Source: Acidobacteriota bacterium
Lineage (GTDB): Bacteria; Actinomycetota; Acidimicrobiia; Spongiisociales; UBA11373
Length of the DNA stretch: 64,000 nucleotides
Assembly: GCA_022571885.1 (NCBI GenBank)
Contig: JACZWZ010000001.1
Location: forward strand, 156-64,155
Direction: 5' to 3'
Shown here piece by piece: positions 1,702 to 20,682 of the stretch; the stretch's first letter is position 1; the number at the start of each line of letters is the position of its first letter. Position numbers and translations under genes: made by a program. The notes under the pieces were generated by a model. It did not search any database. It saw nothing but the letters and a program-made list of their open reading frames with translations, and was not told the DNA's origin.

Positions 1702-2399
1702 CGTTGGTCCCCTGCCACCAGCACCAGCCGGATATCACCCGCGGCTGCTGCCCGGGCCACCGCTGCGGCGGCGTCGGCGGGTATCCGTAGCGACACGAAC
1801 CGCTGCCCCTGGGTGCCTAGTTCGGCCAGGTCGAACACCTCCGCCGCCGTCACCAACACCACCCCGCCATCGCCCGACGTCACCCCCGCGGGCTCCGCGG
1901 CGGTGCTGATCACGTCCACCAGATCGCCGGCAGTCAGACGCAGCGTCGGATACTCCCCGGCCGACAGCGCCAATCCCACCACCCCCTCGCCGACTTCGAG
2001 CAGGTTGCGGGCCACGAAATGGGCCCGAGTCACGATGGTGCCCGCTTCCAGATCGGCCACTGCGATCAGACCCGTCAACGTCCCCAGCTCGTCGACCGAC
2101 ATCGTGGCCACCGGGTCATCCGTCCCCACGTACACCACCTGGAAGTCACCGGCGTTGACCACCTGGCCACGCTGCACCTCATCGGCCAGCGCCAGTACCG
2201 GATCACGAGAAGCCGCCCCCGAGAACAACACCACCGCCGCCAACGCGCTCAACGCCACCAGCGTCACCGCCACCAGCAGCTGAGGAACCTGCACCCGACG
2301 GTGCGGCGGCTCCAGACGGAACGGGCTCAGGGTGCGCTCCCCATCACCCGACCCGCCGACGTGGCTAGTCGATGCCGGCTTTGCTGATCCTCGGTCCAT
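1698..2399 (-). CDS. CpaB/RcpC-like SAF-domain membrane protein (Flp pilus assembly)
   Basis: Single N-terminal TM (LLVAVTLVALSALAAVVLF) followed by a SAF/CpaB-like beta-rich domain; stop overlaps start of the ParA-like gene (ATGA). Start chosen at MDRG (2399), 1 nt after the upstream stop. Confidence 0.5.
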   Translation of the reverse strand: MDRGSAKPASTSHVGGSGDGERTLSPFRLEPPHRRVQVPQLLVAVTLVALSALAAVVLFSGAASRDPVLALADEVQRGQVVNAGDFQVVYVGTDDPVATMSVDELGTLTGLIAVADLEAGTIVTRAHFVARNLLEVGEGVVGLALSAGEYPTLRLTAGDLVDVISTAAEPAGVTSGDGGVVLVTAAEVFDLAELGTQGQRFVSLRIPADAAAAVARAAAAGDIRLVLVAGDQR

Positions 2400-2400
2400 G

Positions 2401-3297
2401 TCAGCCTCCCGTCTCCACCGCCTGGATCTCGCCCACCGCCACCACAAACGGGGTCGACAGATCCAGGGTGCCGAACACCCCCTGATAGGTGTCGTTGATC
2501 CACCACTCGAACTCCCAGCTCACCGTCACCCGGGCCGAGAAGCGGCCCCCCGGGTGGTCGTAGGAGCTGTGTAGGTAGGTGTAGGAGCAGTCGGTGCCGT
2601 TCTCCCCCAACCCTGACACCCACTCCACCCCCGGTCCCAAACAGGTGACCCCGCCACCGTCGCCCATCACCCACCGGGCATGCGTCGGTGTTGCCCACAC
2701 CGTGACTGTCGTCAACCCCCGGGTCTCCGACGCCTCCAGCAGCCCCCAGTCGGCCGGATCCAGCCACAGCCACGTCGGCACCCGCACAAACGCCTGCCGG
2801 GCCAGCGGCGGGCTCGTCTCAGGCACCGGCAGAGGAGGCTCCAACCGGGCCGACGCCACATCGCGGATCACCTCGAGCGGAACCGGCGGTGTCACCTCCA
2901 CCGCGAACTCATACGAATACGCAACCCAACCGTCCCGCCAACAGTTCGCACCCCACCACCAGTACTCGCCGGTCGGATCGAAACCGACATACGCGATGTC
3001 CCCCTCGGTCAAAGGATCCGACGGATACAGCTCCACCTCATCACCGTCCAGAAACTCCCCCACCACTCGGGCGCAGTGGATCTCCCACAATCGATCCACC
3101 GACCCGCTTCCCGGCTGACCCGGCGTCCGCCCGTGGCATTCCCCAAATACGTCGCCGCCCCTCTGATCAATGCGGCCCTCCCCCGAACAGTGGTTAGCGA
3201 GAGCCGGCGCGGCGGCCAGCGTCACCGCTGGCACAACCATGGCCAGGGCGACAGTCAGACCGAGGGCAACCCCCGCTCCGTTGGTGCGAACTCGCAT
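2401..3297 (-). CDS. secreted hypothetical protein (signal peptide, Trp-rich)
   Basis: N-terminal MRVRTNGAGVALGLTVALAMVVPAVTLAAAPALA signal-like sequence; no recognisable family. Confidence 0.45.
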   Translation of the reverse strand: MRVRTNGAGVALGLTVALAMVVPAVTLAAAPALANHCSGEGRIDQRGGDVFGECHGRTPGQPGSGSVDRLWEIHCARVVGEFLDGDEVELYPSDPLTEGDIAYVGFDPTGEYWWWGANCWRDGWVAYSYEFAVEVTPPVPLEVIRDVASARLEPPLPVPETSPPLARQAFVRVPTWLWLDPADWGLLEASETRGLTTVTVWATPTHARWVMGDGGGVTCLGPGVEWVSGLGENGTDCSYTYLHSSYDHPGGRFSARVTVSWEFEWWINDTYQGVFGTLDLSTPFVVAVGEIQAVETGG

Positions 3298-4294
3298 GCG
3301 AAATCCACCTGTCCTTGCAGATCAGCAACCTTCCACAGCCCACCTTCGAACACCATCACCGCTGATTCCAGATCACGCTGCCCCTCACGTACCGATGGTT
3401 CGTCTGTCAATCGTTCCCCCGTGTCGAGGTCGTACAGGCCATAGTCCGGATCGGCTTCCATGCAGCTGAAAACAACTAGTTCGGTCGGACTGCGGACCTC
3501 TATCACCTCAGCGTGTGTCTCGGGCCGACCTCGCAGCGCCACCCGGCGAGCCTCGTGCTCTTCGAGGAGGCCAACAATGAATCCCTGCTGGGGCTCAGAC
3601 AGCACAGCGTCGACAAGCGGATGATCCGGATCAGGCGGGTCCCAGAAGGTTTCCCGAGCGTCGTAGTAGGCGTCGTAACCAGCGATGGCCGCCTCGGCCA
3701 TCTGCTCTGGCACGCAACCACCACCACTCGGGATGAACAGAGAGACCACCACCCAACCCTGCGCGCCGTTCGCCAGGTCCGCCTGGTACCAGACCCCGAC
3801 GGTGTCCGTGAACGAAAGCGACAGGAGGACGCAATCCTCGATGGTGGCCTTATCCGACCCAAGGTCTGTCACCCTGGCCGAAGTCACCACGTCGGTCTCC
3901 ACAGGTCCCAGCCCCGACTCACGTTGCCGCTCGAACAGCGCAACCACGCCTTCAACCACGTCGGGATCCGCCACTCGCTGCAACGGGGCGGGATCAAGAT
4001 CCTTTGAGGCCCGCACCGCGGACCACGCCGCCCAGAAGGCATTCCAAGCGGCGAGCAGATCCTCCTCCAACGGATCAGGTGCCGTGGTGGTAGCGGTGGC
4101 AGTAGCAGTAGTCGACGAGGTTGGTGAAGTAGATGTCGATGGCGGTGCGGCAGAAGTTGACGTCGCAAGCGAATCAGAGGTTGTGGTCGGAGCGGCAGCC
4201 GGCGAGGCATTGCTGCAGGCCGCAAACACCAGAAACGAGGCCAGGACAGGCGCAAGGAGACTACGTGAAGAAGTCGGGGCTCCGAGCTCCGGCA
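3255..4294 (-). CDS. hypothetical lipoprotein with Ser/Thr/Ala-rich linker; start uncertain (ORF extends to 4445)
   Basis: ...SRSLLAPVLASFLVFAAC lipobox-like signal followed by an S/T/A low-complexity tract and a globular C-terminal domain. GTG at 4294 gives a plausible signal peptide; the first ATG is at 4445. Confidence 0.45.
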
Positions 4295-5038: not shown

Positions 5039-6205
5039 ATGGCCAGCATTCAGAAACGACACACCGCGAGCAGTGAGATTCGTTGGGATGTCCGCTACCG
5101 GGACCCCGATCAGCGCCACAGGACGAGGACCTTTCATCGCAAGGTCGATGCACAGAAGTTCGCCAACCTTGTGGAGGCCGATCTCGCCCGAGGCGAATGG
5201 CTCGACCCTGGACTCGGCAAGGAAACCTTCGGAGAGTGGGCACGTCGCTGGCAGTCAACCATCGCGGGCCTCGCGCCCAAGACTCGGGAAAGCTACGAGT
5301 CGATCCTCCGCCGCCACCTGTTGCCCAGGTTTGAGAACACGCCGGTGTCGCGCATCGATCATCCGATGGTCCTGGCACTGATGGCTGAGCTCACCTCCAC
5401 CGGGTCCGGCGCAGGCACAGTACGAAACGTACGAGACGTGCTTCGCCTCATCCTCGAGCTGACGCGACGTTCAGGTGCTATTCGGACCAATCCCGTCGAA
5501 GGAGCGAAGGTCCCGAAGAAACCGCCCGCCCAAATGGTGTTCTTGAACGCCGATCAGATCATGACCCTCGCGCAGGAAGTAACCAACCCTCCGATCAGGA
5601 GGGGCGCCGGCGAACACCGACGCGCTGCTTATCCGGAGCGAGGACTCCTCGTGCGCTTTGCCGGCTTCACTGGTCTCCGCTCGGGCGAGATCGTGGCCCT
5701 GCGAGCCGAGGCCATCGATTTGATGCGAGGCCGCGTCCAGGTCCTGGCTTCAGCCAGCGAGGCCTACGGCAAACTCCAATTCGGGCCCCCGAAGACGTAC
5801 CAACGCCGGTCGGTGCCCCTCCCGAAGACTCTTCTCGACGAGTTGACGACCCACCTTGCAAGCAAGGACTCCTCGGACTTCGTGTTCGTGTCGGCGAGGG
5901 GTGGCCCGCTCCGGCACTCAAACTTCTACGCGCGGCACTTCAAACCGGCGGCGATCCGATTGGGCCTGCCACAGACAACCCGCTTTCACGACCTCCGACA
6001 CAGCTACGCGGCGATGCTCATCGCGGAAAACGCCCATCCCAGAGCCATCATGGAACGCCTCGGCCACAGCACGATCCAGGTCACCCTCGGTACGTACGGG
6101 CATCTGTTCCCAAGCCTCGAGGCTTCGCTGACCGAGGCCCTCGACGACGTGTACCGAGGAGCCAAGCCGACGCCGCCAGCCAAGGTGCGAGAAATCAAAG
6201 GCTAA
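5039..6205 (+). CDS. int: tyrosine-type site-specific recombinase/integrase (phage/ICE type with N-terminal arm-binding domain)
   Basis: N-terminus SIQKRHTASSEIRWDVRYRDPDQRHRTRTFHRKVDAQKFANLVEADLARGEWLDP is typical of actinobacterial element integrases; C-terminal catalytic R...HDLRHSYAAMLIAENAHPRAIMERLGHSTIQVTLGTYGHLF (His-x-x-Arg and Tyr). Confidence 0.9.
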   Translation: MASIQKRHTASSEIRWDVRYRDPDQRHRTRTFHRKVDAQKFANLVEADLARGEWLDPGLGKETFGEWARRWQSTIAGLAPKTRESYESILRRHLLPRFENTPVSRIDHPMVLALMAELTSTGSGAGTVRNVRDVLRLILELTRRSGAIRTNPVEGAKVPKKPPAQMVFLNADQIMTLAQEVTNPPIRRGAGEHRRAAYPERGLLVRFAGFTGLRSGEIVALRAEAIDLMRGRVQVLASASEAYGKLQFGPPKTYQRRSVPLPKTLLDELTTHLASKDSSDFVFVSARGGPLRHSNFYARHFKPAAIRLGLPQTTRFHDLRHSYAAMLIAENAHPRAIMERLGHSTIQVTLGTYGHLFPSLEASLTEALDDVYRGAKPTPPAKVREIKG

Positions 6206-6612
6206 TCAGTCACCCACTCATGGTCGGTAGGTGATCGATGCATTCGATGCAGGGTGCGAAAAGACCCGCTGCGTAGCATGTCGATAGCCGATCAGGAGCA
6301 ACCAGGATGGCCGAATCCCCCCGGACCCTGGTTGAGGACCTAGCCGGAAGTTTCAACCAGACCGTCCTCGACCATGACACCCTCACGAGCCACAGTGTCC
6401 TCGATGCCCTTGCGGGTCCCCCATCTCTCTGGTAGGGGATCCGGTCTCAGACAGCACACATACGTATCACGAATAACTTCAAGAAAGACCGGAACAGCGA
6501 CCAAAACCTGGCGAGGCATGACTCATCAGCGCAACGGCGGGTCAGTCGGCCCGCGCCATGGACGCGCGATGGAGCCTCTTCGCAGCTCGGAGCAGGACAA
6601 CCCAGAACTCCG

Positions 6613-6640: not shown

Positions 6641-6643
6641 TCG

Positions 6644-6717
<74 letters not shown>

Positions 6718-6868: not shown

Positions 6869-7546
6869 GTGTTTATGGCCGTCGCACTACTGGAGGATGT
6901 CGGCAGCTCGCGGCGTAGCGATCTTCGCCGTGAGCTGATTGTGGTAGATCCGCGCCCTCTGTTTGCTGATGCCATCTCGGCCGGCTTCGACTCCGGCGAA
7001 TGGCTGGTCCACATCCTCGCCCCGGAGGTGGTGTCCGACATCCCGATTCGAACCGGCATCGGTGTGGTGGCGCTGGCCCGACCCGACCCGGCGGAAGTGG
7101 TGGCAATCCTCGCCGCTCGAGACAGACGGGTGATCGTGTACGGAAGTGACCAAGGGGCGATGTTTTTCGAGGCCGTCGAGGCGGGTGCAGTCGGATTCGT
7201 CTCCGATCGGGCCGAGGCCGGCGAGTTCGGACGGGCGGCGACGGCACTACGCAATGGGGCCCCGTCGGTGTTCCCGGAACACACCCGGCGCCGAATGTCG
7301 AGCCCCGGGTGGCCGGCTGCCGACAGCGGCGTTGTCGAACTGGAACGCCTGACCCGACGGGAACGAGAAGTGCTCAATGGGCTGGTCGCCGGGCTGAGTC
7401 CCGCCGCAATCGCCGAACGGGATTTCGTCTCGGTGATCACCGTGCGCAACCAGGTGCAAGCCATCCTCACCAAGCTGAACGTTCACTCGCAGCTCGAGGC
7501 GGTCGCCACCGTGCACCGCTACGGCTGGATGCTTCACACCGCGTAA
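6869..7546 (+). CDS. LuxR-family transcriptional regulator with atypical N-terminal receiver-like domain
   Basis: C-terminal LTRREREVLNGLVAGLSPAAIAERDFVSVITVRNQVQAILTKLNV is a LuxR/GerE-type HTH; N-terminal part resembles a degenerate REC. Same strand as flp and directly upstream. Confidence 0.6.
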   Translation: MFMAVALLEDVGSSRRSDLRRELIVVDPRPLFADAISAGFDSGEWLVHILAPEVVSDIPIRTGIGVVALARPDPAEVVAILAARDRRVIVYGSDQGAMFFEAVEAGAVGFVSDRAEAGEFGRAATALRNGAPSVFPEHTRRRMSSPGWPAADSGVVELERLTRREREVLNGLVAGLSPAAIAERDFVSVITVRNQVQAILTKLNVHSQLEAVATVHRYGWMLHTA

Positions 7547-7703: not shown

Positions 7704-7874
7704 ATGTTGAAGCGTCTGTACATCGCCCTGCAAAGCAGGGACGACGGCGCAACGATGGTGGAGTACGGCCTGATGGTCGCGCTCATCGCCGTGGTTGCCC
7801 TGGTAGCCGTCACCGCCCTCGGGGGCAGTGTCAGCGGCATCTTCCAGAACGTCGCCAACACGCTGACGCCATGA
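7704..7874 (+). CDS. flp: Flp-family type IVb prepilin (56 aa), absent from ORF track because under 60 aa
   Basis: Own translation: MLKRLYIALQSRDDGATMVEYGLMVALIAVVALVAVTALGGSVSGIFQNVANTLTP. G/ATMVEYGL is the Flp processing motif followed by a hydrophobic helix; GAGGAGG RBS at 7689-7695; stop TGA at 7872-7874. Confidence 0.8.
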   Translation: MLKRLYIALQSRDDGATMVEYGLMVALIAVVALVAVTALGGSVSGIFQNVANTLTP

Positions 7875-7886
7875 AAACACCGTCTG

Positions 7887-7916
7887 GGTCTCGGGGGGTT
7901 CGAACCGCCCGAGACC
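7887..7916 (+). terminator. stem-loop just after flp (ggtctcggggggttcgaaccgcccgagacc); candidate partial terminator/attenuator
   Basis: 9-10 bp GC-rich stem read directly, 13 nt after the flp stop and 16 nt before tadE. Confidence 0.4.
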
Positions 7917-7931
7917 AGGACGGAGTCTCTT

Positions 7932-8294
7932 ATGAAACGCGACGACGGAGCAGCCCTCGTAGAATTTTCCCTGGTACTCACCCTGCTGGTGATGATCACC
8001 TTTGGGATCATCGGCTTCGGGCGGGCCTACAACGCTCAGGTGACACTCACCCACGCCACCCGTGAGGGTGTGAGGGTGCTGGCGATCACCGGCGATGCCG
8101 ACGCCGCCGCCGCCGCCACCAAGAACGCAGCCACCACTCTCGATCCGGCACTGCTCACGATCACCACCAGCGCCTGCTCTCCCGGATACCCCACCGAACT
8201 GACCGCCTCCTACCCCTTCGAGCTCGATATTCCGTTCTGGGGAACCCAGAACCTCGACCTCAACGCCACGGCGGTGATGAGATGCAGCGGCTGA
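7932..8294 (+). CDS. tadE: TadE-like pseudopilin
   Basis: N-terminus DDGAALVEFSLVLTLLVMITFGIIGFGRAY matches the TadE-like domain. Confidence 0.75.
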   Translation: MKRDDGAALVEFSLVLTLLVMITFGIIGFGRAYNAQVTLTHATREGVRVLAITGDADAAAAATKNAATTLDPALLTITTSACSPGYPTELTASYPFELDIPFWGTQNLDLNATAVMRCSG

Positions 8295-9244
8295 ACGGCG
8301 AACGCGGCGTCGTCGGGGTGTTCGTCGCCCTCTCGATGACCATTCTGATTGGCATGCTCGGCTTTGCCGTCGATATCGGGGCTCTCTACAACGAGCGACG
8401 CCAGCTGAGCAATGGAGCGGACGCCGCGGTGCTCGCCATCGCAGAAGACTGTGCTCTGGGTGTCGGGTCTTGCGACCCGGCCACCGCCACCGTGACCGCC
8501 CGGAACTTCGCCAACGCCAACGCCAACGACGGCTTCGCCTTCATCGAAGACGTTTCCCTCGACCTGAACGCCCGGACGGTGCGGGTCGAGGTGGGCACGC
8601 TCGAAACCGACGGGGGCCGGGTGCTCACTCCCTTCTTTGCCCAGGTGGTCGGGTGGGACGGATCCACCGTCCACGCCTCTGCCTCGGCACTCTGGGGGTA
8701 TCCCAGCTCGATGCGCGGCGTGCTGCCGTTGATCATCTCCGAATGCGAATTCCCGCTCGGCACTGCGGTTCCCACCGCCAACTTGATCCTCACATTCCAC
8801 GAGGGAAACAACACCGAAGAGTGCAACGCGGTCGCCGGCCAGGACATGGACGGCGACGGCAAGCTGGCGGGAGGGTTCGGCTGGCTCGCCACCAACGGGA
8901 ATTGCGGGTCCGACCTGTCCACCGGCAGCTGGATCTTCGCCGACACCGGCTCCTCGCCATCCAATGGATGCTCCCTGCCGGACCTCAGCGGGCTTATCGG
9001 CATTCCGACTCCGCTACCGATCTTCGACGACATCGCCGGTGTCGGAGCCAACGGGCAATACCACATCTCGGGCTTCGGGCTCTTCGTCATCACCGGTTAC
9101 AACTTCGGCGGTCAGTACAAGGTCAACCCGCCGTGCTCGGGGTCCACCCGCTGCGTGTCGGGCTACTTCACCCCGGGCACCGTCCACGACGGCGAGCCGG
9201 GCGGACCGAATCGTGGAATCGTCATCGTCAAGTTGACCGGATAG
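8282..9244 (+). CDS. tadG: TadG-like pilus assembly protein
   Basis: N-terminus GVVGVFVALSMTILIGMLGFAVDIGALYNERRQLSNGADAAVLAIA is the TadE/G-like membrane anchor; large Cys- and Gly-rich extracellular domain. Confidence 0.7.
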   Translation: MQRLNGERGVVGVFVALSMTILIGMLGFAVDIGALYNERRQLSNGADAAVLAIAEDCALGVGSCDPATATVTARNFANANANDGFAFIEDVSLDLNARTVRVEVGTLETDGGRVLTPFFAQVVGWDGSTVHASASALWGYPSSMRGVLPLIISECEFPLGTAVPTANLILTFHEGNNTEECNAVAGQDMDGDGKLAGGFGWLATNGNCGSDLSTGSWIFADTGSSPSNGCSLPDLSGLIGIPTPLPIFDDIAGVGANGQYHISGFGLFVITGYNFGGQYKVNPPCSGSTRCVSGYFTPGTVHDGEPGGPNRGIVIVKLTG

Positions 9245-9253
9245 GAGACGGAA

Positions 9254-10087
9254 ATGCGCAGAGCCATCGGAATCATCGGGGCCGTCGCCGTAGCCGCCCT
9301 CGGCACACTGCTGTTGGTCGGCTACGTACGCGGTGCCGAGGACCGCGCTCTGGCCGGCGAGGAACTCGCCGACGTGCTGGTGGTCGATTTACCGATCGCC
9401 CAGGGGACCCCGGCCAGCAATCTGACCCCATTCGTCCGCCTGGAGCAAGTCCCGATGAAGATCAGGGCCGAGGGCGGTATCGCCGACCTGGCCACCCTGT
9501 TCGACCTGGTGGCCGCCACCGACCTCCTCCCCGGAGAACAGCTGGTGGCAGCGCGCTTTGTGACCGCCGAGTCGCTCGAGAAACACGCCCGAATAGAAGT
9601 ACCCGCGGACGCCCTCGAGGTGACGATCTCGATTTCACCGGAGCGAGCGCTCGGCGGCCAGCTGGTTCCGGGTGACGTGGTGGCCGTGATCGCATCGTTC
9701 GACCCCTTCGACCTGAACACGTTCGAACCATCCGACCTGGGCCCGGGCGAGATCATCGACCCCAATGAGATCTTCCTGGGAGCATCCGACAACGATCCCG
9801 GTTCCTCTGTGCGATCACCCACCTCCACCGGTCTCATCCTGCACAGAGTGCTCGTAACTGCCGTGCAGTTGGAGCAGCTGCCCCGATTGGCCGGCGATGA
9901 CCTCCCCGAGGACACGCCGGAGCTGGCACCGACCGGCAACCTTCTGATAACGCTGGCAGCAGAGGTGGACGACGTCGAGCGAATAGTGTTTGCCGCCGAA
10001 CACGGATTCATCTGGCTGGCATCCGAAGGCACGGACGTCGTCGACTCGCCGACGCCGATCCAAACCCGGGAGACGGTCTACCGATGA
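9254..10087 (+). CDS. cpaB: CpaB/RcpC Flp pilus assembly protein (SAF + RcpC)
   Basis: N-terminal TM then SAF-like region (ADVLVVDLPIAQGTPASNLTPFVRLEQVP...GEQLVAARF) and C-terminal RcpC-like region. Confidence 0.75.
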   Translation: MRRAIGIIGAVAVAALGTLLLVGYVRGAEDRALAGEELADVLVVDLPIAQGTPASNLTPFVRLEQVPMKIRAEGGIADLATLFDLVAATDLLPGEQLVAARFVTAESLEKHARIEVPADALEVTISISPERALGGQLVPGDVVAVIASFDPFDLNTFEPSDLGPGEIIDPNEIFLGASDNDPGSSVRSPTSTGLILHRVLVTAVQLEQLPRLAGDDLPEDTPELAPTGNLLITLAAEVDDVERIVFAAEHGFIWLASEGTDVVDSPTPIQTRETVYR

Positions 10088-11265
10088 GACCGATAATCCT
10101 CGCCGGCTCGACCGACCCCTTCGCCCGCAAGGTGTACGAAGCGATCGGCGACGACCTGCGGGATCGGGTTCGTCTGTGGACCCAGCACCTCGCCGACCCG
10201 GGCGGGCTGGAGGCGCTGCTCGACACGCAACCGGCGGTGGTGGTCCTCGGCCCGGGACTGGTCGACGAGGTCTCACTCCGCTTCGCCCAACAGATCGATG
10301 CCGAGCGTGCCGAGGTCGGAGTAGTCGTCGTCCAGAACGCCGGGACCAACGTCGAGGCCGCGCTGGCCGCCGGGGTCCGCGGGATCCTCAGCCAGGACTC
10401 CGATGCCGATTCGATCAGGGCCGCCATCGAAGGGGCAGCCGCATCCGTCGATCGCTACGAAGAGAGAGCGCAGACTCAGCTACGCAAGCCGTCGGTCGGC
10501 CGGGCCAAGGTCACAACGGTGTTGTCTCCCAAGGGCGGAGCCGGCAAGACGGTCCTCAGCACCAACCTGGCGGTGGGGCTCGCCTCGGTGGCGCCGCGCG
10601 GCGTGGTGATCGTCGATCTCGATCTCCAATTCGGTGACGTGGCCTATGCCCTCGGTCTCAAGCCGCGCCACACCATGTACGACGTCGTATCGACCGCCGG
10701 GCCGCTCGACATCACGACCCTCAAGGTGTTCCTCACCCACCACTCCTCCGACCTCTACGTGATGTGCGCCCCCGATGAGCCGGCTCGAGGCGAAATGATC
10801 GGAGTGGAGGCCGTGCAGCAGATCATCAGTCTTCTCGCCGCCGACTTCGATCATGTTGTGGTGGATACCCCGGCGGGGCTCAGCGAACACACCCTGGCGA
10901 CGCTCGACCTGTCGACCGACGTGATCTTCCTGGCAGACATGGACGTTCCCAGCGTTCGCCATCTCACCAAGGTCATCAAGGCCTTCGATCGCCTGGGGAT
11001 GCGGAGCGCCGAGCGCCACTTCGTCTTGAACCGCGCCGATGCCCGGGTCGGCCTCACCATGATGAAGGTGGCCAACCAGGCGGGCCTGGCGATCGACATC
11101 AAGATCCCGTTGTCGAAGCAGGTCCCGATAGCTCTCAACGCGGGTTCCCCGATCATTCTCTCCCATCCGAAGAATCCGGTAAGCCGCAAGATCTGGGAGA
11201 TCGTGGAACGACTCGCCGGCCCACAGATGCGGGAGACCAGGCAACCGTTGAAATGGAGTGCGTAA
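10084..11265 (+). CDS. cpaE: CpaE/TadZ (receiver-like N-domain + ParA/MinD ATPase)
   Basis: VLSPKGGAGKTVLSTNLAVGLA Walker A (KGGxGKT) plus N-terminal pseudo-receiver; start overlaps cpaB stop. Confidence 0.85.
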   Translation: MRPIILAGSTDPFARKVYEAIGDDLRDRVRLWTQHLADPGGLEALLDTQPAVVVLGPGLVDEVSLRFAQQIDAERAEVGVVVVQNAGTNVEAALAAGVRGILSQDSDADSIRAAIEGAAASVDRYEERAQTQLRKPSVGRAKVTTVLSPKGGAGKTVLSTNLAVGLASVAPRGVVIVDLDLQFGDVAYALGLKPRHTMYDVVSTAGPLDITTLKVFLTHHSSDLYVMCAPDEPARGEMIGVEAVQQIISLLAADFDHVVVDTPAGLSEHTLATLDLSTDVIFLADMDVPSVRHLTKVIKAFDRLGMRSAERHFVLNRADARVGLTMMKVANQAGLAIDIKIPLSKQVPIALNAGSPIILSHPKNPVSRKIWEIVERLAGPQMRETRQPLKWSA

Positions 11266-12642
11266 ATGAAGTTGAGTGACCGGCTCCAGGCCATCGAACC
11301 CGACCAAACACCATCGTCGCCGGGTAACGGACAGGTCGGAGAGACGATTCCATCCAGTGATCCACTCGCCGAATTCAAGGGCATGGCCAAGCAGGCCCTG
11401 TACGGCAAGCTGGAATCCCAAGCATTTGGCAGCGCTCTGGGAGAGGGAGAACTCAAGGCCACGGTGATCAAGGAATTGGAGAGGTTGATCGCCGACACCG
11501 ACATCCCGCTCAGCGCCGCCGAACGGGAGCGCATCGCCGAGGAAATCAGTGAGGACATACTGGGGTACGGGCCGATCCAGCGCTTCCTCGATGACCGCGA
11601 GGTCACCGAGATAATGGTCAACTCCACCAACCCGATCTTTGTGGAGCGCGCCGGAAAGATCAGTCGCACCACATCCCGCTTCTCCAGCGAAGAACATCTG
11701 CGCCAGGTGATCGAACGGATCGTTGCCAGCGTCGGGCGCCGCGTCGACGAAGCGTCACCGATGGTCGACGCCAGGCTCCCGGACGGCTCACGGGTGAATG
11801 CGATCATTCCCCCCCTGGCAGTCGATGGACCGGCCCTGACCATCCGCAAGTTCGCCGCCGACCCGTATGGGGTCGACGATCTCATCCACTTCAAGACGAT
11901 GACCCGTCCGATGGCAACGCTGCTGGCGGCTTGTGTGGAGGGAAAGCTCAACATCCTCATCTCCGGTGGCACCGGTTCGGGGAAGACCACGCTGTTGAAC
12001 GTCATGTCGTCCTTCGTCCCTGCCAACGAGCGGATCGTGACCATCGAGGACTCGGTCGAATTGCAGCTTCTTCAGGAGCACGTGGTGCGGCTGGAAAGCC
12101 GACCCGCCAACATCGAGGGGAAAGGACTGGTGACCATCCGCGACCTGGTGCGAAACTCGCTGCGGATGCGCCCCGACCGGATCGTCGTCGGCGAGGTACG
12201 CGGAGCCGAGGCGTTGGACATGTTGCAGGCGATGAACACCGGCCATGAGGGCTCGATGTCCACGCTGCACGCCAACAGTCCGCGCGACGCGCTGAGCCGC
12301 CTCGAGACAATGGTGCTGATGGCGGGACTGGACATCCCGGTGTCTGCAGTGCGCGAGTACATCTCCTCGGCGCTGAGCGTGATAATCCAACTCTCCCGAA
12401 TGAGCGACGGCACCCGCCGCATCACCCAGGTGTCCGAGATCGTCGGCATGGAGGGCGAGGTGATCACGATGCAAGACGTGTTCCGCTTCCACCAGACCGG
12501 TGTGGACGACGAGGGCAAGGTCATCGGCGGCATTATCCCCACCGGCATCCGACCCCAGTTCGCCGAACAGCTCTCCAGAGCAGGCCTGAAGCTTCCGGCC
12601 GGGTTGTTCGGTGGTCCGACCGCCAAGGAGAAGGCTGCGTGA
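11266..12642 (+). CDS. cpaF: CpaF/TadA secretion ATPase
   Basis: [16 protein letters not shown] Walker [49 protein letters not shown]. Confidence 0.9.
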
Positions 12643-14543
12643 GACCGCTCGGCGCCATCGCAGTCGTCTTCGTAGCACTGGCGATATCGATCCCGGCATT
12701 GGCCGAAGAAGGCCTGGTGATCGAGTCCGTCGACATCACCAACGCGCCCGAAATGTCGCTGGTCATCTCGATCCCTGCTGAGGTGGTGGCGACAGATCCG
12801 GTGGCGTCGGACTTTGCGGTCCTGGTAGAAGGCATCCGGGTCTCGGCCGACGTGTTTGCCCTGGTGCGGGACCCGATGGAAGTGGTGATCGTGATCGATA
12901 CCTCCGGGAGCATGGCGGGTGAGCCGATGCAGGCGGCGACTTCTGCCGCCCTCGGGTTCATCGATTTGCTCCCCGAATCAGCCCTGGTGTCATTGGTCAC
13001 CTTCGGCGACGACGCGGTGGTCCGTAACGCCATGGGGGCGACTCGATCCGAGGTCGCCGAGTCTCTCTCAACCCTGATTGCCGAAGGGGAAACCGCTCTC
13101 TACGACGCCACGGTCACCGGCGCGTTGCAATTCACCGATGCCGACGCCAGACACGTCTTGGTGGTCCTCTCTGATGGAGCAGACACGGTGAGCACCGCCG
13201 GCCTCGACCAGGCGATCGCGGCTGCCGCAGAAGCAGACGCCGAGGTGCGGGCAGTCGCCCTGCAGACTTCTGAGAGCGCCCACGACGCTCTGTCGGCCCT
13301 GACCTCCACCGGCTCGATCACCACCGCGGTCGATGCCGCCGACCTGGCGGCCGCGTACCAGATCGTGGCACTCGAACTGACGGGCCGATATCGACTCACC
13401 TTCCAGGCGGCGTCGACCGGCTCGGTCCAGATCGATGTCTTCGTCAACGGACCGACGCGGGTGTTGTCATCCTCCCAGGTGGTCGATCTCGCCAGCGGAG
13501 TCGTCAGTCGAGGAGGTTCACCACAGCCGATTCCGGCGGGTTTCGGCCAAAACCCGGCGGCAGCGGTCCCGGTCGTCAAGGCCGAGCCGACCGGCCTCAG
13601 CTCGAGCTGGACCCTGCCGGCCGGGGTCGCCCTGGTGTTCGTCGGTGCGTTGACCATGCTGTGGCTGACGTCAAAGGATGACGAAAACCCACTGGCGTTC
13701 GAGGCTCCGGTCGAAGTCGATCAATCGATCGAGCGAGCCGGTTTCATCCCGGCCGTCGGAAGAAGGGCGAGGGCGATCGGGGAGCGAATCGCCGGGCGTA
13801 ACGATGCCGGGGCCATGGACCGCGCCCTGGATCGCGCCGGAGTCGCCCTGCGTCCCGGAGAATTCGTCATTGTCTCGGCAACCGGGGTGGTCGTCGGCGT
13901 GACCGCCGGACTCGTCATGGGCGGCACCATCGGCGCGGTATTCCTGGGAGCAGCAGCCGCGGCAGCGCCCCGAACCATTCTGCGCACACTGGCCAATCGG
14001 CGTCGGCGCGCCTTCGCCAACCAACTCGAAGGCAGTTTGCAGACGATCGCCGGGAGCCTGCGTGCCGGCTACGGGTTGGTGCAAGCGATGTCGACCGTCG
14101 CCGAAGAGTCGCCGTCGCCGACCTCAGACGAGTTCAACCGGGTTGTGGTCGAGTCACGCCTGGGGCGATCGATCGAAGATTCGCTGGCCGCGATGGCCGA
14201 GCGCCTCGAAAACGAGGATCTCGGCTGGGTGGTCGAAGCCATCGAGATCCAGCACGAGGTGGGCGGCAACCTGGCCGAGGTTCTCGACACCGTGACCAAC
14301 ACCATCCGCGAGCGCAACCAGCTCCGGCGCCAGGTGCAGGCACTCAGCGCCGAAGGCAAGATCTCCGCCATCATCCTGGTGTCGCTGCCGCTGGTGATCG
14401 CCTTCTTCATCGCGATAATCAGCCCCGACTATCTCGCCGAACTGACCGATACCGGCGTGGGCCGGATCATGATTGGAGTGGCGGCAATACTCATGCTCGC
14501 CGGCGCCGCCTGGATCAAAAAGATCATCAGGGTGGAATTCTGA
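12639..14543 (+). CDS. tadB: fusion: signal peptide + secreted von Willebrand factor A (VWA) domain + C-terminal TadB (T2SS-F family) membrane domain
   Basis: [22 protein letters not shown] signal; [13 protein letters not shown] (DxSxS MIDAS) ...[11 protein letters not shown] features in residues about 80-250; TM; then [16 protein letters not shown]... typical TadB/GspF-like region with C-terminal TMs. Confidence 0.75.
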
Positions 14544-15451
14544 TGCTGGGCGTACCTGTCTACGTCGTGGCGGCGGCCGGGATGGTGGTGGCAAGCTTGC
14601 CGCTGCTGGCGTGGTCGGTCGGCGGAAACCGGAGCAAGGTTGCTCCGACAGGTTTCGTCGATGGGCCGATCGATGAGCGGCAGGTGTACTTGCGGGTGGG
14701 GCCGCTCGATCGGGTCATCGTTCCGGTGGCCCGTTATCTGGGCCGTAAGGTCCGCCGAATCACCCCCGTGGGTTGGATCGATTCGCTGGAGCGGCGGATT
14801 CGACTCGCCGGATCTCCCGACGCCTGGCCGGTGGAGCGGGCACTGGCACTCAAGATGGTTCTCGGGATCGTGGGCGCCCTGGGGACTTGGGCCGCGAGAG
14901 GCAACGCTTTTGGCCTCTCCGACCTCGGGCTGAGCGCTCTCGGAGGTCTGGTTGGATACTTGCTGATCGATCTGATCCTCTACTCCCGCGGCAAGGAGCG
15001 TCAGAAGAAGATCCTCAAATCGCTTCCCGACACACTCGATCAACTCACCATCAGCGTGGAAGCGGGACTCGGATTCGACGCCGCCCTGATGAGAGTCACC
15101 TCCACCGGGACCGGCCCTCTCGCCGAGGAGCTGACCCGAGTGCTGGCCGAGATCAAGGTCGGCGTCCAACGGACCGACGCCCTGAAACACCTGATCGAAC
15201 GCACCGACGTCTACGAGCTGCGCCACTTCATCCTGGCGTTGAACCAGGCGGAGCAGTACGGGCTTCCGGTGGCCCGAGTGCTGCGTATCCAGTCCGGAGA
15301 CCTTCGGATCAAGCGGCGTCAGCGGGCCGAAGAAGAGGCCATGAAGATCCCGGTCAAGATCGTGTTCCCCCTCGTTTTCTGCATCTTCCCGGCGCTATTC
15401 GTGGTCCTGCTGGGACCGGCCATGATCCGGGTCTCGCGGGCTCTGCTCTAG
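14543..15451 (+). CDS. tadC: TadC (T2SS-F family) inner-membrane platform protein
   Basis: Three TM segments with cytoplasmic LPDTLDQLTISVEAGLGFDAALMRV...QAEQYGLPVARVL GspF-like domain. Confidence 0.8.
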   Translation: MLGVPVYVVAAAGMVVASLPLLAWSVGGNRSKVAPTGFVDGPIDERQVYLRVGPLDRVIVPVARYLGRKVRRITPVGWIDSLERRIRLAGSPDAWPVERALALKMVLGIVGALGTWAARGNAFGLSDLGLSALGGLVGYLLIDLILYSRGKERQKKILKSLPDTLDQLTISVEAGLGFDAALMRVTSTGTGPLAEELTRVLAEIKVGVQRTDALKHLIERTDVYELRHFILALNQAEQYGLPVARVLRIQSGDLRIKRRQRAEEEAMKIPVKIVFPLVFCIFPALFVVLLGPAMIRVSRALL

Positions 15452-15456
15452 CTAGA

Positions 15457-15830
15457 GGAAGTCACCAGTCTCCAGTCTCCAGTCTCCAGTCTCCAGTCAG
15501 AATTCAGATTCGGAGGGAGGCCATCCTGCTGAGTGGCTGACCAAAGAACTCCAGTCCCCACTTGAGAAGTCCCCGGTTTCCGGTCCCCAGTCGCTAGTCA
15601 GAATTCAGATTCGGAGAGAGGCCCCTCCTGATGACTGGCGGCTTAGAGGCCGCGCGGATAGGCGGGATGCGACCGCCGGTGCCTCGTGAGCCCTTGTGGA
15701 ATATCGCCCTGCGTGTGAAACATCCGTCCATGTTTCACCCAACCGCTGAGTCTCTTAGTACTGAAGTCTTGCTGGAGACTGGAGACTGACGACTGACGAC
15801 TGACGACTGACGACTGACGACTCCTCTACG
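15457..15830. repeat. heptamer tandem arrays as inverted arms ((CAGTCTC)x4 ... (GGAGACT)x2(GACGACT)x5) bounding about 270 nt with two 28-nt direct repeats (gtcagaattcagattcggagRgaggcc) and a 9-bp perfect hairpin (gtgaaacat ccgtcc atgtttcac)
   Basis: Read directly in the convergent tadC / UPF0182 intergenic region. Confidence 0.7.
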
Positions 15831-18789
15831 CGTTTTCTCCCGCCAGGGCTCCCTCGATCAACTCCCGGGCCTGGTCGATCAGCCGTTGTGCCTCAGCGAC
15901 CTGAGACTGATAGGTGGCGAGGTCGGCGTCGCGTAGTGCGGCATCTGCTCGGGTAAAGGCTGCATCCGCCCGGGCCAGCAGCTGTGACACCGCAGCAGTT
16001 ACATCCTCCGGCAATGGCTCCGTGGTCCCGTCGTCGGTGCCGTCATCGTCGACGATCGGACCCGCATCGCCGAACACTGCCTGGAGCGACTCGTCGAGGG
16101 TCGGTCGCATCACGATGCGATCGCCGAACACCACGATGACGAACTTCACCTCCGGTAGAGCTGCGATATCCGAAGCCGCCGCACTTCCCGCCGGGTCGGC
16201 AGACACATAGATCGGCTGCACGTACATGATCGACTCTGCGATCGGCACCACCAGCATGTTGCCCTGGATCACCTCGGACCCACCCTGGCTCAGCAGGCTG
16301 AACTCACGTGAGATATCGGGCTCCTGGTTGATCCGGGCACCGATCTGGCCGGGACCGTCTACAAAGGACTCGCGCGGCAACTCGAACGTGATCAGCCGTC
16401 CGTACTCATCCGGATCCGACTTCGCCACGATGAAGGCAACCATGTTTGGTCGAGTGGCGGCCGTAAACGGCTGCAGCAGCAAGTAGGAGAGATCGGTCTC
16501 ACCCGGAAGCTCCATCAGCAGGTAGTAGGGCACCATCGGTCGGTTTTCGGCCGGGAAGGACACTCGCTGTGCCTCGGAGCTGGTGGTCGACGGATCGCGG
16601 GCTATCTCCCAAGGGGCACCGTTGTTGAAGAACACCCGGGGGTCGGTGACGTGGTACTTGGTGTACACGTCGGACTGGACCCGGAACAGGTCTTCGGGAT
16701 AGCGGAGGTGGTTGAGGAGCTCCGGTGGCATCTCGTCGGCGTCGGAGAACAGCGACGGGAAAATACTCCGATAGGCCCGCACGATCGGATCGGTATCGTC
16801 GAAGAGGTAGAAAATGATCGTTCCATCGAAAGCATCGACGGTGGCCTTCACCGAATTCCGGATGTAGTTGAAGTCGCTGGGGAGCCCGGAGGCGACATTG
16901 AGCCGACCGGCAGCCGGGACACCACCGGCGGTGGACTGGGTGCTGTCGGCCGGCGTCGAATACGGGTACCGATCGGTCACCGTGTACATGTCCTGGACCC
17001 AGACAAGCTTCCCCTCGCTGCTGATCACCAGATACGGGTCGGTGTCGGCGGCCAGGAATGGTGCCGCCTTCTCGAGGCGGTCACGCAGGTTGCGCACCAT
17101 GAGCACCCTGCTGTCGCTGGTGATCTGACCCGAGATGAGGGTATTGATGTCGGCGAACCGGAGGGCGAACGCCGCCCTACGGAAGAACGAACCTATCTCC
17201 ACACCACCTTTACCGTCGTATGAGGTAAAGGCGAGCAACTCGCTCCCGTTGCCCTCGTCGGAGCTGGTCTCGATCGGGAAGTCGACCTCCTGCTCCTTGG
17301 TACCGACGACCACGAAGTCTGACGAAGCCACCGTTTCACCGAAGTAGATCCGTCCCTGGCTCACCTCGACGGTTGCCGGCACGCCCTCGTCAGGATTGAT
17401 GTCCTTCAGAATGAAGTCCGGCTGGCCCTGGGTCGTCACCGTGTTGGCCGGACTCAGCACGGCGCCGAACCCGTGGGTGTAGACCAGATGCTCGTTTACC
17501 CAGCCACCCCCGGGGATACCGGCGGTGTCGAGTTCGCGAGCGGCCAGCATCACCTGGGTCAGCTCACCATCCAGCATGTAGCGATCTACATCGACGTCAT
17601 CGAACTGATAGAACGGCTGCAGCTCCTGGAGCTGCCGATAGGTGGTGAGCAGCACCGACGGATCCCACAGCCGAATGTTGTCGATCGTCGGTGAATTGTT
17701 GGCGATATCTTCCGCATCGAGCGCATCGGAAGCTGCAAAGCCTTTGACTTCGACCGAATCGAGACCATATGCCGCGCGGGTGAATTCGATATTCCGGGTG
17801 ACAAACGGAAGCTCCTTGTTGATCTCGTCCGGCTGGACCGAAAAGCGCTGAACGGCAGCCGGCCAGATGCCGCCGAGCGCCACCGAAGTGACGAGCCACA
17901 GGCCGAAGGCCACTGCCGGCAGAGTCCACCCCCTGATCCGCGTATTCACCAGGAGCAAGATTGCCGCCACCACCGAAATCCCAATGAGCAGGTTGAGCGC
18001 AGGTAATTGGGCGTTGACATCGGTATGGGTCGCTCCGAATACGGCACCACGGGACGAATACAGCAGATCGAATCGGTCCAGCCAGTAGCCGGCGGCCTTG
18101 AAGAGAGCGATGATCGCCAGCAACACCGAGAGGTGAACCTTCACCCCGGCGGATACGCGCTGCACTCGCGGTTGTATCTGTACGCCGCCGTTGAGGTAAT
18201 GGATCGCGGCAATCACCAGGAAGGTGATCAGGAAGAACTGGAAGCCCCAACTAAAGAGGTCCCGATAGAACGGCACCGTGAAAACGTAGAAACCGACATC
18301 GTTGTTGAAGACCGGATCGACAATGCCAAACTTCTCGCTGTTCTGGAAGAGAAGCCAGTCCTCCCACCACGCCCCGGCACCGAGTCCGATGAGCAGACCA
18401 ATGAAACCGCTCACGGCGAGGCGGAACCGGAGACGCCGGGTCCGCACCCACTCCTGGAAACGCTCCACGATCTCCTCATCCGGGCTTCCGGCAACCAGGG
18501 ACTGGGGCGGCGAAAGCCGGTCGGCCACGACGAGGTTCAAGAACAGGAGCGAGAACGCCAGCAAGGTGGCGATGATGACGAGAATAATCCGAGTGAAGAT
18601 CAGCGTTCGCCAGACCGACCCGAACCCCAGCGAATCGAACCAGAGAAAATCGGTCCAGAAGTTCGCTATCCCGCGCAGCGACAGCAGCAGGATGAACAGA
18701 ACAACACCGGCCCCGATGAGCAGCCGCCGGCCGCGCGAGAAGGAACGGATCGGGATGGGAGTGGGTTCACGCTCAATCATTGAGGACAC
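15826..18789 (-). CDS. UPF0182-family large membrane protein (like M. tuberculosis Rv3193c)
   Basis: 987 aa; N-terminus RRLLIGAGVVLFILLLSLRGIANFWTDFLWFDSLGFGSVWRTLIFTRIIL matches UPF0182; multiple N-terminal TMs and a large extracytoplasmic domain. Confidence 0.75.
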   Translation of the reverse strand: MSSMIEREPTPIPIRSFSRGRRLLIGAGVVLFILLLSLRGIANFWTDFLWFDSLGFGSVWRTLIFTRIILVIIATLLAFSLLFLNLVVADRLSPPQSLVAGSPDEEIVERFQEWVRTRRLRFRLAVSGFIGLLIGLGAGAWWEDWLLFQNSEKFGIVDPVFNNDVGFYVFTVPFYRDLFSWGFQFFLITFLVIAAIHYLNGGVQIQPRVQRVSAGVKVHLSVLLAIIALFKAAGYWLDRFDLLYSSRGAVFGATHTDVNAQLPALNLLIGISVVAAILLLVNTRIRGWTLPAVAFGLWLVTSVALGGIWPAAVQRFSVQPDEINKELPFVTRNIEFTRAAYGLDSVEVKGFAASDALDAEDIANNSPTIDNIRLWDPSVLLTTYRQLQELQPFYQFDDVDVDRYMLDGELTQVMLAARELDTAGIPGGGWVNEHLVYTHGFGAVLSPANTVTTQGQPDFILKDINPDEGVPATVEVSQGRIYFGETVASSDFVVVGTKEQEVDFPIETSSDEGNGSELLAFTSYDGKGGVEIGSFFRRAAFALRFADINTLISGQITSDSRVLMVRNLRDRLEKAAPFLAADTDPYLVISSEGKLVWVQDMYTVTDRYPYSTPADSTQSTAGGVPAAGRLNVASGLPSDFNYIRNSVKATVDAFDGTIIFYLFDDTDPIVRAYRSIFPSLFSDADEMPPELLNHLRYPEDLFRVQSDVYTKYHVTDPRVFFNNGAPWEIARDPSTTSSEAQRVSFPAENRPMVPYYLLMELPGETDLSYLLLQPFTAATRPNMVAFIVAKSDPDEYGRLITFELPRESFVDGPGQIGARINQEPDISREFSLLSQGGSEVIQGNMLVVPIAESIMYVQPIYVSADPAGSAAASDIAALPEVKFVIVVFGDRIVMRPTLDESLQAVFGDAGPIVDDDGTDDGTTEPLPEDVTAAVSQLLARADAAFTRADAALRDADLATYQSQVAEAQRLIDQARELIEGALAGENA

Positions 18790-18954: not shown

Positions 18955-19040
18955 TGCCGTCGAGTATCCAGTTCAGACTGGTTACTGGCTACTGGCTACT
19001 GGTTACTGGCTACTGGCTACTGGTTACTGGTTACTCTGCC
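18955..19040. repeat. (TACTGGY)x8 heptamer tandem array, preceded by two copies of gtcgagtatccRgt
   Basis: ggttactggctactggctactggttactggctactggctactggttactggttact read directly between the DivIVA-like stop and UPF0182 start. Confidence 0.8.
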
Positions 19041-20641
19041 GGGGTGATCGTGCAGGTACATGCCAGGCTGGCCGGCGGCACCGCCATCCCGTCCGGGGGC
19101 TCCCGCCCGGGTCGCCAGGAAAGGCCATCCGGTCCGGCACATTTCTCGCACAACGCGACATTCGACAGTGCCGTCACCTTGTCTATCCCACCGGAACGAA
19201 GGGCGGCCAGCAGACTGTCGTGGTAGGCCGCAGTGGCGATCGACCGCACCCACCGCTCTGCAGTGTCGTTGCGCCACGAGCGAAACACCCGCCCAATGGC
19301 TTCGGTCGCCAGCTCGGGACCACCAACATCTTCCAGCGACGCCGCCAACTGGCCGGCCAACGCCGCCGACATGGAGATCACCAGCCGACCGCCACGATTT
19401 CCGGGCTCAGACAGCGATCCGAACAGGCCGGCCAGCGGGCCGGCGGCGGTAGCACCGGCCGACCCTGCCTTGTGGATCAACGATTCGAGGACGAGCCCCA
19501 GCTCCCGGCCAATGTCGGGAGGGTGCGGTTCCCAACCCGAACTCCGTAGGCCGTCGAGCGCGACATTCTGCATCTCGACGATGAGCCGCTTCGTCTCACG
19601 TACTCCCGCGTTGATGATGGGCAGCAAGAGTTTGTCTTTCAGCTCAAAAGGGTCGGTTGGAAGCTGCTCCCCCACAGCAATCGTCTCGACTTCTCCGGTG
19701 GTGCGAAGCGCTTCGAACAGGGTGCCGACGTCATCCTCGGTCCCGAACACTTGAGCCGGGGGATCGACCCGAATCCGGATCGTCTCCGGATCCGACCTCA
19801 TTTCCTGTACCTCGGCCGCCAGCACATCGCTCAGATCTATGCCATCGGGTTCGAAGCCTTCGTCGGCCGGCTCGACATGGGCGGGCTTGGCCTGGGGCTC
19901 GTTGCCGAAGACCTTCACCGATTCGATCGAGCGCTGCAACCGGAGCCGCTCAATCTCCTCGAGCAGTTCCTCTCGACGAGCATCGGCGAGATCGGGAGGA
20001 ATCGACTCGCCGGAGGCCTCGAGGTGCTCGGGGCCGATGGCGCGATCGATTATCTGCTGTGCTATTTCGCGAGCCTGGTTGAGCCGACGATCGGCCTCGT
20101 ATCGGGCCTGTCGGATCAAGTCGCTTGCTTCGCGCTCGGAGCCGGAGATGTGGCGATGCGAATCCTTCTCCGCCTGAGCGCGAATCAGAAGGGCATCGTC
20201 CTTGCCGGCGCTGACGACCCGTTCCGCTTCGACCAATGCCGCGTCGAGCACATCCATGCCGGTCTCCCAGGCATCGCGGCGAAGATCGAAGGCCTGGCCC
20301 TCGGCCTCGGCGACCGCACCGGTAGCGGCCGCGGTCGATTCGACATCGATACGTTTGGCCTCTTCCTGAGACCTGGTGCGCATACCCTCGGCGGCCTGCT
20401 GGGCAGAAGACAGAATCTCGCCTACTTCGAGACCGACCGCACCCAATTCACGACCAAGGAATTCGAGTCCGCCGGATGCTTCGACGGTCGCTCTCAATTC
20501 CTCGTATCTATCTAGAAGGATCTGCCAGCGGTCCCGCGCCTCGGAGTGCAAGGCATCGATGACCCGTTTGTCGTAACCCCGCCGGGAAGAAGGTACGCCA
20601 CGCGCCGTCAGGTAATCGGGACCGATATCGTCGTCGGCCAT
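19031..20641 (-). CDS. DivIVA-domain coiled-coil protein
   Basis: MADDDIGPDYLTARGVPSSRRGYDKRVIDALHSEARDRW matches the DivIVA N-terminal domain; long charged coiled-coil region. Start taken at internal ATG (20641) rather than 20680. Confidence 0.55.
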   Translation of the reverse strand: MADDDIGPDYLTARGVPSSRRGYDKRVIDALHSEARDRWQILLDRYEELRATVEASGGLEFLGRELGAVGLEVGEILSSAQQAAEGMRTRSQEEAKRIDVESTAAATGAVAEAEGQAFDLRRDAWETGMDVLDAALVEAERVVSAGKDDALLIRAQAEKDSHRHISGSEREASDLIRQARYEADRRLNQAREIAQQIIDRAIGPEHLEASGESIPPDLADARREELLEEIERLRLQRSIESVKVFGNEPQAKPAHVEPADEGFEPDGIDLSDVLAAEVQEMRSDPETIRIRVDPPAQVFGTEDDVGTLFEALRTTGEVETIAVGEQLPTDPFELKDKLLLPIINAGVRETKRLIVEMQNVALDGLRSSGWEPHPPDIGRELGLVLESLIHKAGSAGATAAGPLAGLFGSLSEPGNRGGRLVISMSAALAGQLAASLEDVGGPELATEAIGRVFRSWRNDTAERWVRSIATAAYHDSLLAALRSGGIDKVTALSNVALCEKCAGPDGLSWRPGREPPDGMAVPPASLACTCTITPAE

Positions 20642-20682
20642 GGACCGAGAGTACCCGCCAGGCAGGTCTGAACGGTGCAATC

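Follow-up and report, generated by a model that had tools for sequence, protein, structure and literature searches.

The gene at 12639-14543 on the forward strand of the DNA analysed here encodes a platform protein of a tight adherence (Tad) pilus that carries a von Willebrand A (VWA) domain ahead of its membrane core. The DNA, referred to as the window, is a stretch of 64,000 nucleotides of contig JACZWZ010000001.1 (positions 156 to 64,155, forward strand) from an Acidimicrobiia genome deposited as Acidobacteriota bacterium. The product, named VWA-TadB below, is a genuine Tad pilus platform subunit whose N-terminus is extended by an exported module. The VWA·TadB fusion is a conserved, common actinobacterial design, and the window protein is an ordinary member of a large family.

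Translation of the open reading frame (ORF), whose coordinates include the stop codon, confirmed an uninterrupted gene for 634 amino acids (aa) directly 3' of TadA/CpaF within an flp/tad locus. Its GTG start shares bases with the tadA stop codon (GTGA), a Shine-Dalgarno sequence AAGGAG read directly from the DNA (12625-12630, +) lies 8 nt 5' of this start, and its own stop overlaps the ATG of tadC at 14543; the gene is translationally coupled. A previous sequence-only reading of the window had proposed a TadB with an N-terminal VWA domain in a single ORF, which is borne out by the Pfam search that it had recommended. PF00092 (VWA) matched residues 82-236 with E=4e-12 (47.1 bits, cut-off 23.8), and PF00482 (type II secretion system F, T2SSF) matched once, at residues 467-591, with E=7.2e-20 (71.6 bits, cut-off 25.2), both above the gathering score. 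VWA_2 (E=1.4e-11) and VWA_3 also exceeded the Pfam cut-off, with 45.4 bits for PF13519 and 31.3 bits for PF13768 against gathering scores of 27 each. The adjacent paralogous TadC likewise contains one T2SSF domain. Membership of TIGR03436 (acidobact_VWFA) was rejected at 42.5 bits, below the curated NCBIfam cut-off of 81.25. Assignment as a VWA pseudopilin of the TadG/CpaL type was also rejected: Pfam found neither PF13400 nor PF07811 in the protein, and hhalign detected no similarity between the profiles of VWA-TadB and the TadG-like orthologues (probability 0.4%). VWA-TadB is therefore not a TadG, but it may still perform a TadG-like job.

Prevalence of the fused gene

The sequence-only reading had regarded the architecture as unusual, a view that the survey of TadB homologues, also recommended there, does not uphold. 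The TadB core alone (residues 324-634) was compared with 1.84 billion representatives clustered at 50% identity, so that the VWA domain was unable to bias the ranking, and the best 150 matches were analysed. The fusion is the majority form among them: 119 of these 150 nearest representatives are at least 550 aa long and fused. Exact DxSGS motifs occur in 104 of the 119 long proteins, the remainder having mostly DxTGS or DxSSS, and of the 31 shorter representatives five or more are N-truncated fragments of fused proteins. When 5.8 billion proteins were searched, matches came from over a hundred independent 90%-identity clusters with lengths near 630 aa, drawn from NCBI, JGI, ENA and Logan assemblies, nearly all of them with VWA and T2SSF Pfam domains and with identities down to 37%. 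A scan of a collection with one genome per species found at least 524 stretches encoding a relative among at least 600 pattern matches listed.

Among the matches listed, the relatives belong mostly to the Acidimicrobiia, with further ones in the Nitriliruptoraceae (Nitriliruptoria), the Pseudonocardiales and metagenome-assembled genomes (MAGs) of the Coriobacteriia. The closest are Acidimicrobiia MAGs, with identities of 91% (P0002) and 76% (L001). The cultured carriers listed are Catellatospora coxensis, C. aurea and Micromonospora yasonensis, and Pfam confirmed VWA and T2SSF domains in the proteins of the latter two. For some carrier MAGs (L008, L011, L018, L045, L046) the label reads Burkholderiales, Kiloniellaceae, Gemmatimonadaceae or Eubacteriales. 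Where their flanks are long enough, they show the secretin-less actinobacterial gene order, and the labels may reflect mis-binning or transfer.

A frameshift, sequencing error or mis-assembly near 13650-13700 that joined two genes had been raised as a possible source of the fusion. This zone is clean and encodes the conserved first transmembrane helix (TM1, W-TLPAG motif) of the TadB core, exactly the point at which truly unfused relatives begin (e.g. MNGTWTLPAG in P0203). In all 75 retrieved loci that carry both halves, each from a different species-level genome, the halves share one frame with zero stops between them. Together with the independent clusters, these observations led us to reject an artefact, the probability of which is negligible, and the single-frame fused gene is almost certainly real.

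The N-terminal module varies within the family. In a protein of 898 aa from the Euzebyales (P0085), Pfam confirmed a pair of VWA domains in tandem N-terminal to the TadB core; two DxSGS motifs were found in four of the 150 nearest representatives, and relatives of about 900 aa with such a doubled VWA module were also seen at loci L017, L029, L039, L041, L045-L047 and others. At the other extreme, locus L072 encodes an unfused TadB of 361 aa (5397-6482) in an otherwise identical operon. It is 49% identical over the core; its N-terminus still resembles a signal peptide, and a stub of some 12 residues is left ahead of TM1, as though the VWA module had been cut out. In a quick neighbour-joining tree of the TadB cores of 50%-identity representatives, short forms are interspersed among fused neighbours, a scatter compatible with repeated loss. 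Parsimony gave 21 changes on this tree, an unreliable number, and several of the short proteins are evidently N-truncated gene calls. Given unfused TadBs in the same clade, pilus assembly probably does not depend on the VWA module, which would act on it as a modulating accessory.

Domain architecture and membrane topology

An AlphaFold2 (AF2) model of VWA-TadB was built from an alignment of 66 sequences and reached a mean predicted local distance difference test (pLDDT) score of 80.9. The protein begins with a Sec-type signal peptide (residues 1-22; 12639-12704, +) ending in IPALA/EEG, with cleavage predicted after A22. Inspection and charge counts identified a basic n-region, an h-region of 17 residues and an AxA-type site followed by acidic residues; AF2 places a helix at 3-16. 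The pattern is kept in the homologues, including the AxA-type sites and the acidic residues behind them, in agreement with the signal peptide recognised by the sequence-only reading. The ectodomain consists of an N-terminal beta-strand segment (residues 23-78; 12705-12872, +; strands at 27-74, pLDDT about 85), the VWA domain (residues 79-248; 12873-13382, +) with the Rossmann-like alpha/beta fold of this family (pLDDT 90-95 at 80-248), and a C-terminal beta-sandwich segment (residues 249-291; 13383-13511, +; strands at 250-291, pLDDT about 86-90). Extended matches in the PDB comprise the VWA plus beta-sandwich proteins ArnB, ITIH1 and 4fx5.

The metal ion-dependent adhesion site (MIDAS) of the DxSxS type that the sequence-only reading had claimed is present and complete, the motif quoted there lying at residues 82-93. 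Its first loop, D87-T-S89-G-S91 (12897-12911, +), aligns to the DTSGSM loop of the solved ArnB structure; Thr152 of the GETALYD motif (13092-13094, +) and Asp179 of the LSDGxDTxS motif (13173-13175, +) complete it. D87, S89, S91, T152 and D179 are invariant in 66 of 66 diverse homologues with 36-90% identity, and the same holds for the nearby G90, G94, G150, D156, G180, D182, T183 and S185. More distant family members show the conservative variants DxTGS and DxSSS. Outside the MIDAS the ectodomain is far more variable across the family, and we therefore conclude that selection acts on the MIDAS face.

A disordered tether rich in Pro, Ala, Thr and Gly (residues 292-323; 13512-13607, +; pLDDT below 55) connects the ectodomain with the TadB core. 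Across the family it measures 16-51 residues (median 32) with 20% Pro and is the least conserved of all segments. TM1 follows (residues 324-346; 13608-13676, +; AF2 helix 325-345), predicted to run from outside to inside, and then an Arg-rich loop with two helices that is probably cytoplasmic (residues 347-408; 13677-13862, +), in which AF2 shows disorder at 346-368 and two helices at 369-400. A hydrophobic segment of 36 residues with strongly basic flanks on both sides (residues 409-444; 13863-13970, +) would form a membrane hairpin; G429 is conserved in it and Pro430 is found in many homologues, and charge statistics and this conserved Gly-Pro call for such a hairpin. The helical bundle of T2SSF, predicted to be cytoplasmic (PF00482; residues 445-574; 13971-14360, +; pLDDT 89-95, bundle drawn at 480-541) is the best-conserved segment, with a mean column identity of 0.74. 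The protein ends with two predicted transmembrane helices, a short acidic loop, probably outside, between them and a basic, probably cytoplasmic tail (residues 575-634; 14361-14543, +), which AF2 renders as long C-terminal helices at 545-630. No sequence match to the TadB core was obtained among solved structures.

The side of the membrane on which the VWA domain lies was assessed with the positive-inside rule, applied to each of the 66 aligned sequences. The n-region has a family mean net charge of +1.7, which points to the inside, and the 15 residues past the h-region a net charge of -3.7, which points to the outside. The ectodomain (22-322) has a density of Lys plus Arg (K+R) of 0.047 and a net charge of -29, indicating the outside, and the loop 347-408 a density of 0.19 (12 K+R per 62 residues), indicating the inside. 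Likewise, the 20 residues C-terminal of the 409-444 segment (0.26) and the C-terminal tail (0.275) would be inside and the loop 598-608 (0.008) outside. These statistics support the extracytoplasmic VWA domain proposed in the sequence-only reading, and the domain very probably lies outside the membrane. Signal peptide, outside VWA, TM1 running inwards, basic cytoplasmic loop, hairpin, cytoplasmic T2SSF bundle, two transmembrane helices and cytoplasmic tail appear to be the only order consistent with the charge pattern. Hydropathy agrees with the positive-inside statistics on a polytopic layout; the AF2 model contains no hairpin at 409-444. TadC and the unfused TadBs start straight with an equivalent N-out transmembrane helix, in agreement with the orientation suggested for TM1. 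In AlphaFold3 models, the positively charged helices at the N-terminus of both CpaG and CpaH contact the cytoplasmic ATPase CpaF (PMC12019362). These basic helices correspond to the VWA-TadB loop 347-408, and the topology suggested here agrees with their modelled position on the ATPase.

The Tad operon and characterised systems

The locus is a full monoderm-type Tad operon with the order flp-tadE-tadG-like-cpaB-tadZ-tadA-VWA·tadB-tadC, which is conserved across 80 related loci. All genes lie on the forward strand. The Flp prepilin (7704-7874, 56 aa) has a G/ATMVEYGLMVALIAV motif, read directly, and its position is kept in related loci. It is followed by a TadE-like minor pilin (7932-8294; PF07811, E=9e-15), a TadG-like pseudopilin without VWA domain (8282-9244; PF13400 only), CpaB/RcpC (9254-10087; PF16976, E=2.8e-9), a TadZ/CpaE-like ATPase of the ParA family (10084-11265; PF10609/PF13614/PF01656) and the secretion ATPase TadA/CpaF (11266-12642; PF00437, E=5e-68). 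The partner platform protein TadC (14543-15451), downstream of VWA-TadB, has a single T2SSF domain (PF00482, E=8e-19) and an N-terminal transmembrane helix and no ectodomain. There is no secretin gene in the Tad locus, and in related loci tadZ stands directly after cpaB. A prepilin peptidase (TadV/CpaA) is not evident within the operon (7704-15451), the only part of the window considered for it. The TadG-like orthologues of 26 out of 26 related loci contain the N-terminal Tad motif only and no VWA domain. Given this count and the hhalign result above, a VWA domain concealed in the TadG-like pseudopilin was rejected, and TadB therefore carries the sole VWA domain of the locus.

Directly upstream of flp lies the gene of a LuxR/GerE-type helix-turn-helix protein (6869-7546, +), a candidate for regulating the Tad operon. 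Immediately left of the locus, a tyrosine (phage-type) integrase (5039-6205, +) adjoins a tRNA-Met (6643-6717, -), a site that may mark the boundary of an integrative element. A T2SSE-family secretion ATPase with 33% identity to TadA (2-832, -) is cut by the window's left edge, and a SAF-domain (CpaB-like) protein (1698-2447, -) lies just upstream of this second T2SSE ATPase; the two may belong to a second pilus-like cluster that has its platform genes beyond the window. The GC content at 1-4000 is slightly raised (0.65-0.69 compared with about 0.62). On the other side of the operon, between a UPF0182 gene (15826-18789, -) and an ORF at 19031-20680 (-), a tandem repeat occupies 18977-19035, with either a 7-nt unit (ACTGGCT, 8.4 copies) or a 21-nt unit (2.8 copies).

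With TadB of A. actinomycetemcomitans and CpaG of C. crescentus, VWA-TadB shares the single PF00482 domain, the gene position between tadA and a paralogous tadC in an flp locus, and the predicted core order of N-terminal transmembrane helix, basic cytoplasmic helices, T2SSF bundle and C-terminal transmembrane helices. It differs from them by the signal peptide and about 300 residues of extracytoplasmic beta-sandwich and VWA domain before TM1. TadB-type proteins have one T2SSF domain, unlike PilC and GspF with two, and characterised platform proteins are described as having sizeable cytoplasmic domains but none on the extracytoplasmic side (PMC10191384). In characterised Tad and type IV pilus systems, VWA domains are carried by pilin-like proteins such as TadG/CpaL or the pilin-VWA protein PilB of S. 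sanguinis (PMC11870444, PMC12075869), and the contrast that the sequence-only reading had drawn with Tad systems is supported. CpaL/TadG is a predicted minor pilin with a MIDAS-containing VWA domain at the pilus tip (PMC11870444). In TadG/CpaL and PilB the VWA domain is grafted on a pilin-like module and predicted or shown to be at the tip, whereas in VWA-TadB it is placed on the platform, with neither a pilin nor a PF13400 motif, and is confined to the membrane. Membrane-anchored VWA proteins of the BatA/BatB type and the Catenulispora acidiphila VWA protein 4fx5 are stand-alone and have no T2SSF domain or pilus context. ArnB of Sulfolobus acidocaldarius (8s05) likewise combines a VWA domain with a beta-sandwich and is linked to a type IV filament system as a regulator of the archaellum. 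It is, however, a soluble cytoplasmic protein paired with an FHA protein, in contrast to VWA-TadB with its signal peptide and extracytoplasmic charge signature.

No description of a VWA domain on TadB, CpaG or any other platform or T2SSF protein was found in 8 million full texts, including the surveys and reviews Denise 2019, Pelicic 2019 and 2023 and Imam 2011. While the Tad pilus itself is known, its VWA platform variant is undescribed but widespread and abundant in public data; the finding amounts to a domain that has changed place in an already known machine.

Possible roles of the VWA module

We lean, with some reserve, towards the explanation that the tethered VWA modules serve as metal-dependent docking sites at the base of the pilus. 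The Sec signal peptide would drive about 300 residues, the beta-sandwich and the VWA domain with its intact MIDAS, across the cytoplasmic membrane, and the Pro-rich tether of about 32 residues would lead from this ectodomain into a normal TadB core, whose cytoplasmic T2SSF bundle would engage TadA. The Tad motor has been modelled as TadA6:TadB3:TadC3 (PMC12019362, PMC12307814), which would give three tethered VWA modules per machine. Their MIDAS sites would then be presented within roughly 10 nm of the outer face of the membrane, round the base of the growing Flp filament. Of the ectodomain surface, only the MIDAS face is strongly conserved, so that capture mediated by a metal ion seems most likely, in which the ion would bind an acidic side chain on a partner likewise located at the membrane surface; whether the MIDAS binds a partner there at all we regard as an even call. 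The priming (tip) complex of TadE- and TadG-like minor pilins would be the leading candidate partner and the CpaB ring the second, and the platform-borne VWA domain could be the in-cis counterpart of the one carried by TadG/CpaL in diderms. A coupling of pilus assembly to the binding of a ligand or metal, as the sequence-only reading had suggested, is plausible. The tether is too short to cross the actinobacterial wall, so the ligand is expected in the machine or the inner wall, and an external ligand is unlikely. More speculatively, and with a rather low probability, the VWA domains might dock or sense the minor-pilin tip complex, holding the priming complex before extension and recapturing it at full retraction, with MIDAS occupancy gating TadA-driven extension and retraction; or they might attach TadB to the wall, where it would act as a stator, giving a non-rotating TadB/TadC platform in these monoderms.

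Several observations weigh against docking by an outside VWA domain. The topology is founded on charge statistics and motif inspection, and the nearest solved relatives by sequence (ArnB) are cytoplasmic. AF2 draws residues 406-475 (13854-14063) as a single unbroken helix of 70 residues, so that the hairpin at 409-444 comes from our reading of the sequence and not from the model; read literally, this helix clashes with the hairpin that an outside VWA domain requires. In current models the platform rotates, and three tethered 30-kDa ectodomains docked to a static partner are awkward in such a machine. Finally, several of the short representatives counted as unfused are probably truncated calls, and the number of losses is therefore an upper bound.

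The main rival, which we nevertheless consider unlikely, is that the exported VWA domain is an envelope anchor whose MIDAS binds an anionic wall polymer and not a pilus protein, thereby positioning or immobilising the platform in a monoderm that has no secretin or PilMNOP-type alignment complex. Peptidoglycan stem-peptide carboxylates or polymers of the teichoic or teichuronic type would be the ligands. The secretin-less locus, with tadZ directly after cpaB in related loci, is consistent with such an anchor, and how the assembly subcomplex of monoderm Tad systems is held together is an acknowledged open question (PMC6916266). A tether of 16-51 residues would keep the VWA domain in the inner wall zone, and tandem VWA domains as in P0085 are expected for avidity-based binding. 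On the other hand, a static TadB contradicts the rotary platform model (PMC12019362), and operons that are otherwise identical work with an unfused TadB (L072). Less probable still is that the VWA domain binds external ligands as an adhesin or sensor and, like the VWA proteins of pilus tips, couples surface or metal sensing directly to the platform: a domain tethered by about 32 residues to the cytoplasmic membrane beneath an actinobacterial wall cannot reach external surfaces, and VWA-TadB has no pilin module to incorporate it into the fibre.

A cytoplasmic position, with an N-terminal helix that is not a signal peptide and a VWA domain acting as an ArnB-like regulator of TadA, TadZ or a phospho-signalling partner, would fit the likeness to ArnB, which is the top Foldseek match (8s05, E=5e-11) and the top PDB sequence match (E=1.5e-5; profile E=5e-18). 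The single AF2 helix at 406-475 would also suit a VWA domain inside and the loop 347-408 outside. However, the extracellular ITIH1/4 and 4fx5 score alike, and the likeness to ArnB is for this reason generic to VWA plus beta-sandwich proteins. In all 66 sequences a cytoplasmic VWA domain would furthermore leave the basic n-region and the 12 K+R of loop 347-408 outside and place a domain with a net charge of -29 and 4.7% K+R inside. The conserved AxA-type motifs with their following acidic residues speak against it as well, as do the equivalent basic helices of CpaG and CpaH modelled on the cytoplasmic ATPase. It is thus disfavoured by the family-wide charge statistics and the signal-peptide features, and we regard it as very improbable.

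Platform proteins are key yet poorly characterised parts of type IV filament machines (Pelicic review, PMC10191384). No functional extracytoplasmic part is ascribed to them, and in current models they rotate inside the ATPase. In a large actinobacterial clade, TadB presents an intact MIDAS-containing VWA domain on its outer face, and the TadG-like protein is without the VWA domain known from diderms. Current database labels are generic ('tight adherence protein B', 'type II secretion system F family protein', 'TadB', 'T2SSF family', 'VWA domain-containing protein') and hide the fusion. The question of its role can be addressed by experiment, given the cultured carriers (Micromonospora, Catellatospora) and the natural unfused variants. 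If the VWA domain binds a component of the machine, it would reveal where the platform physically touches the filament base or the alignment ring; if it binds the wall, rotation of the platform in monoderms would be challenged. Should either the docking or the stator role be true, this natural fusion would provide a handle on the communication between the platform and the base of the filament.

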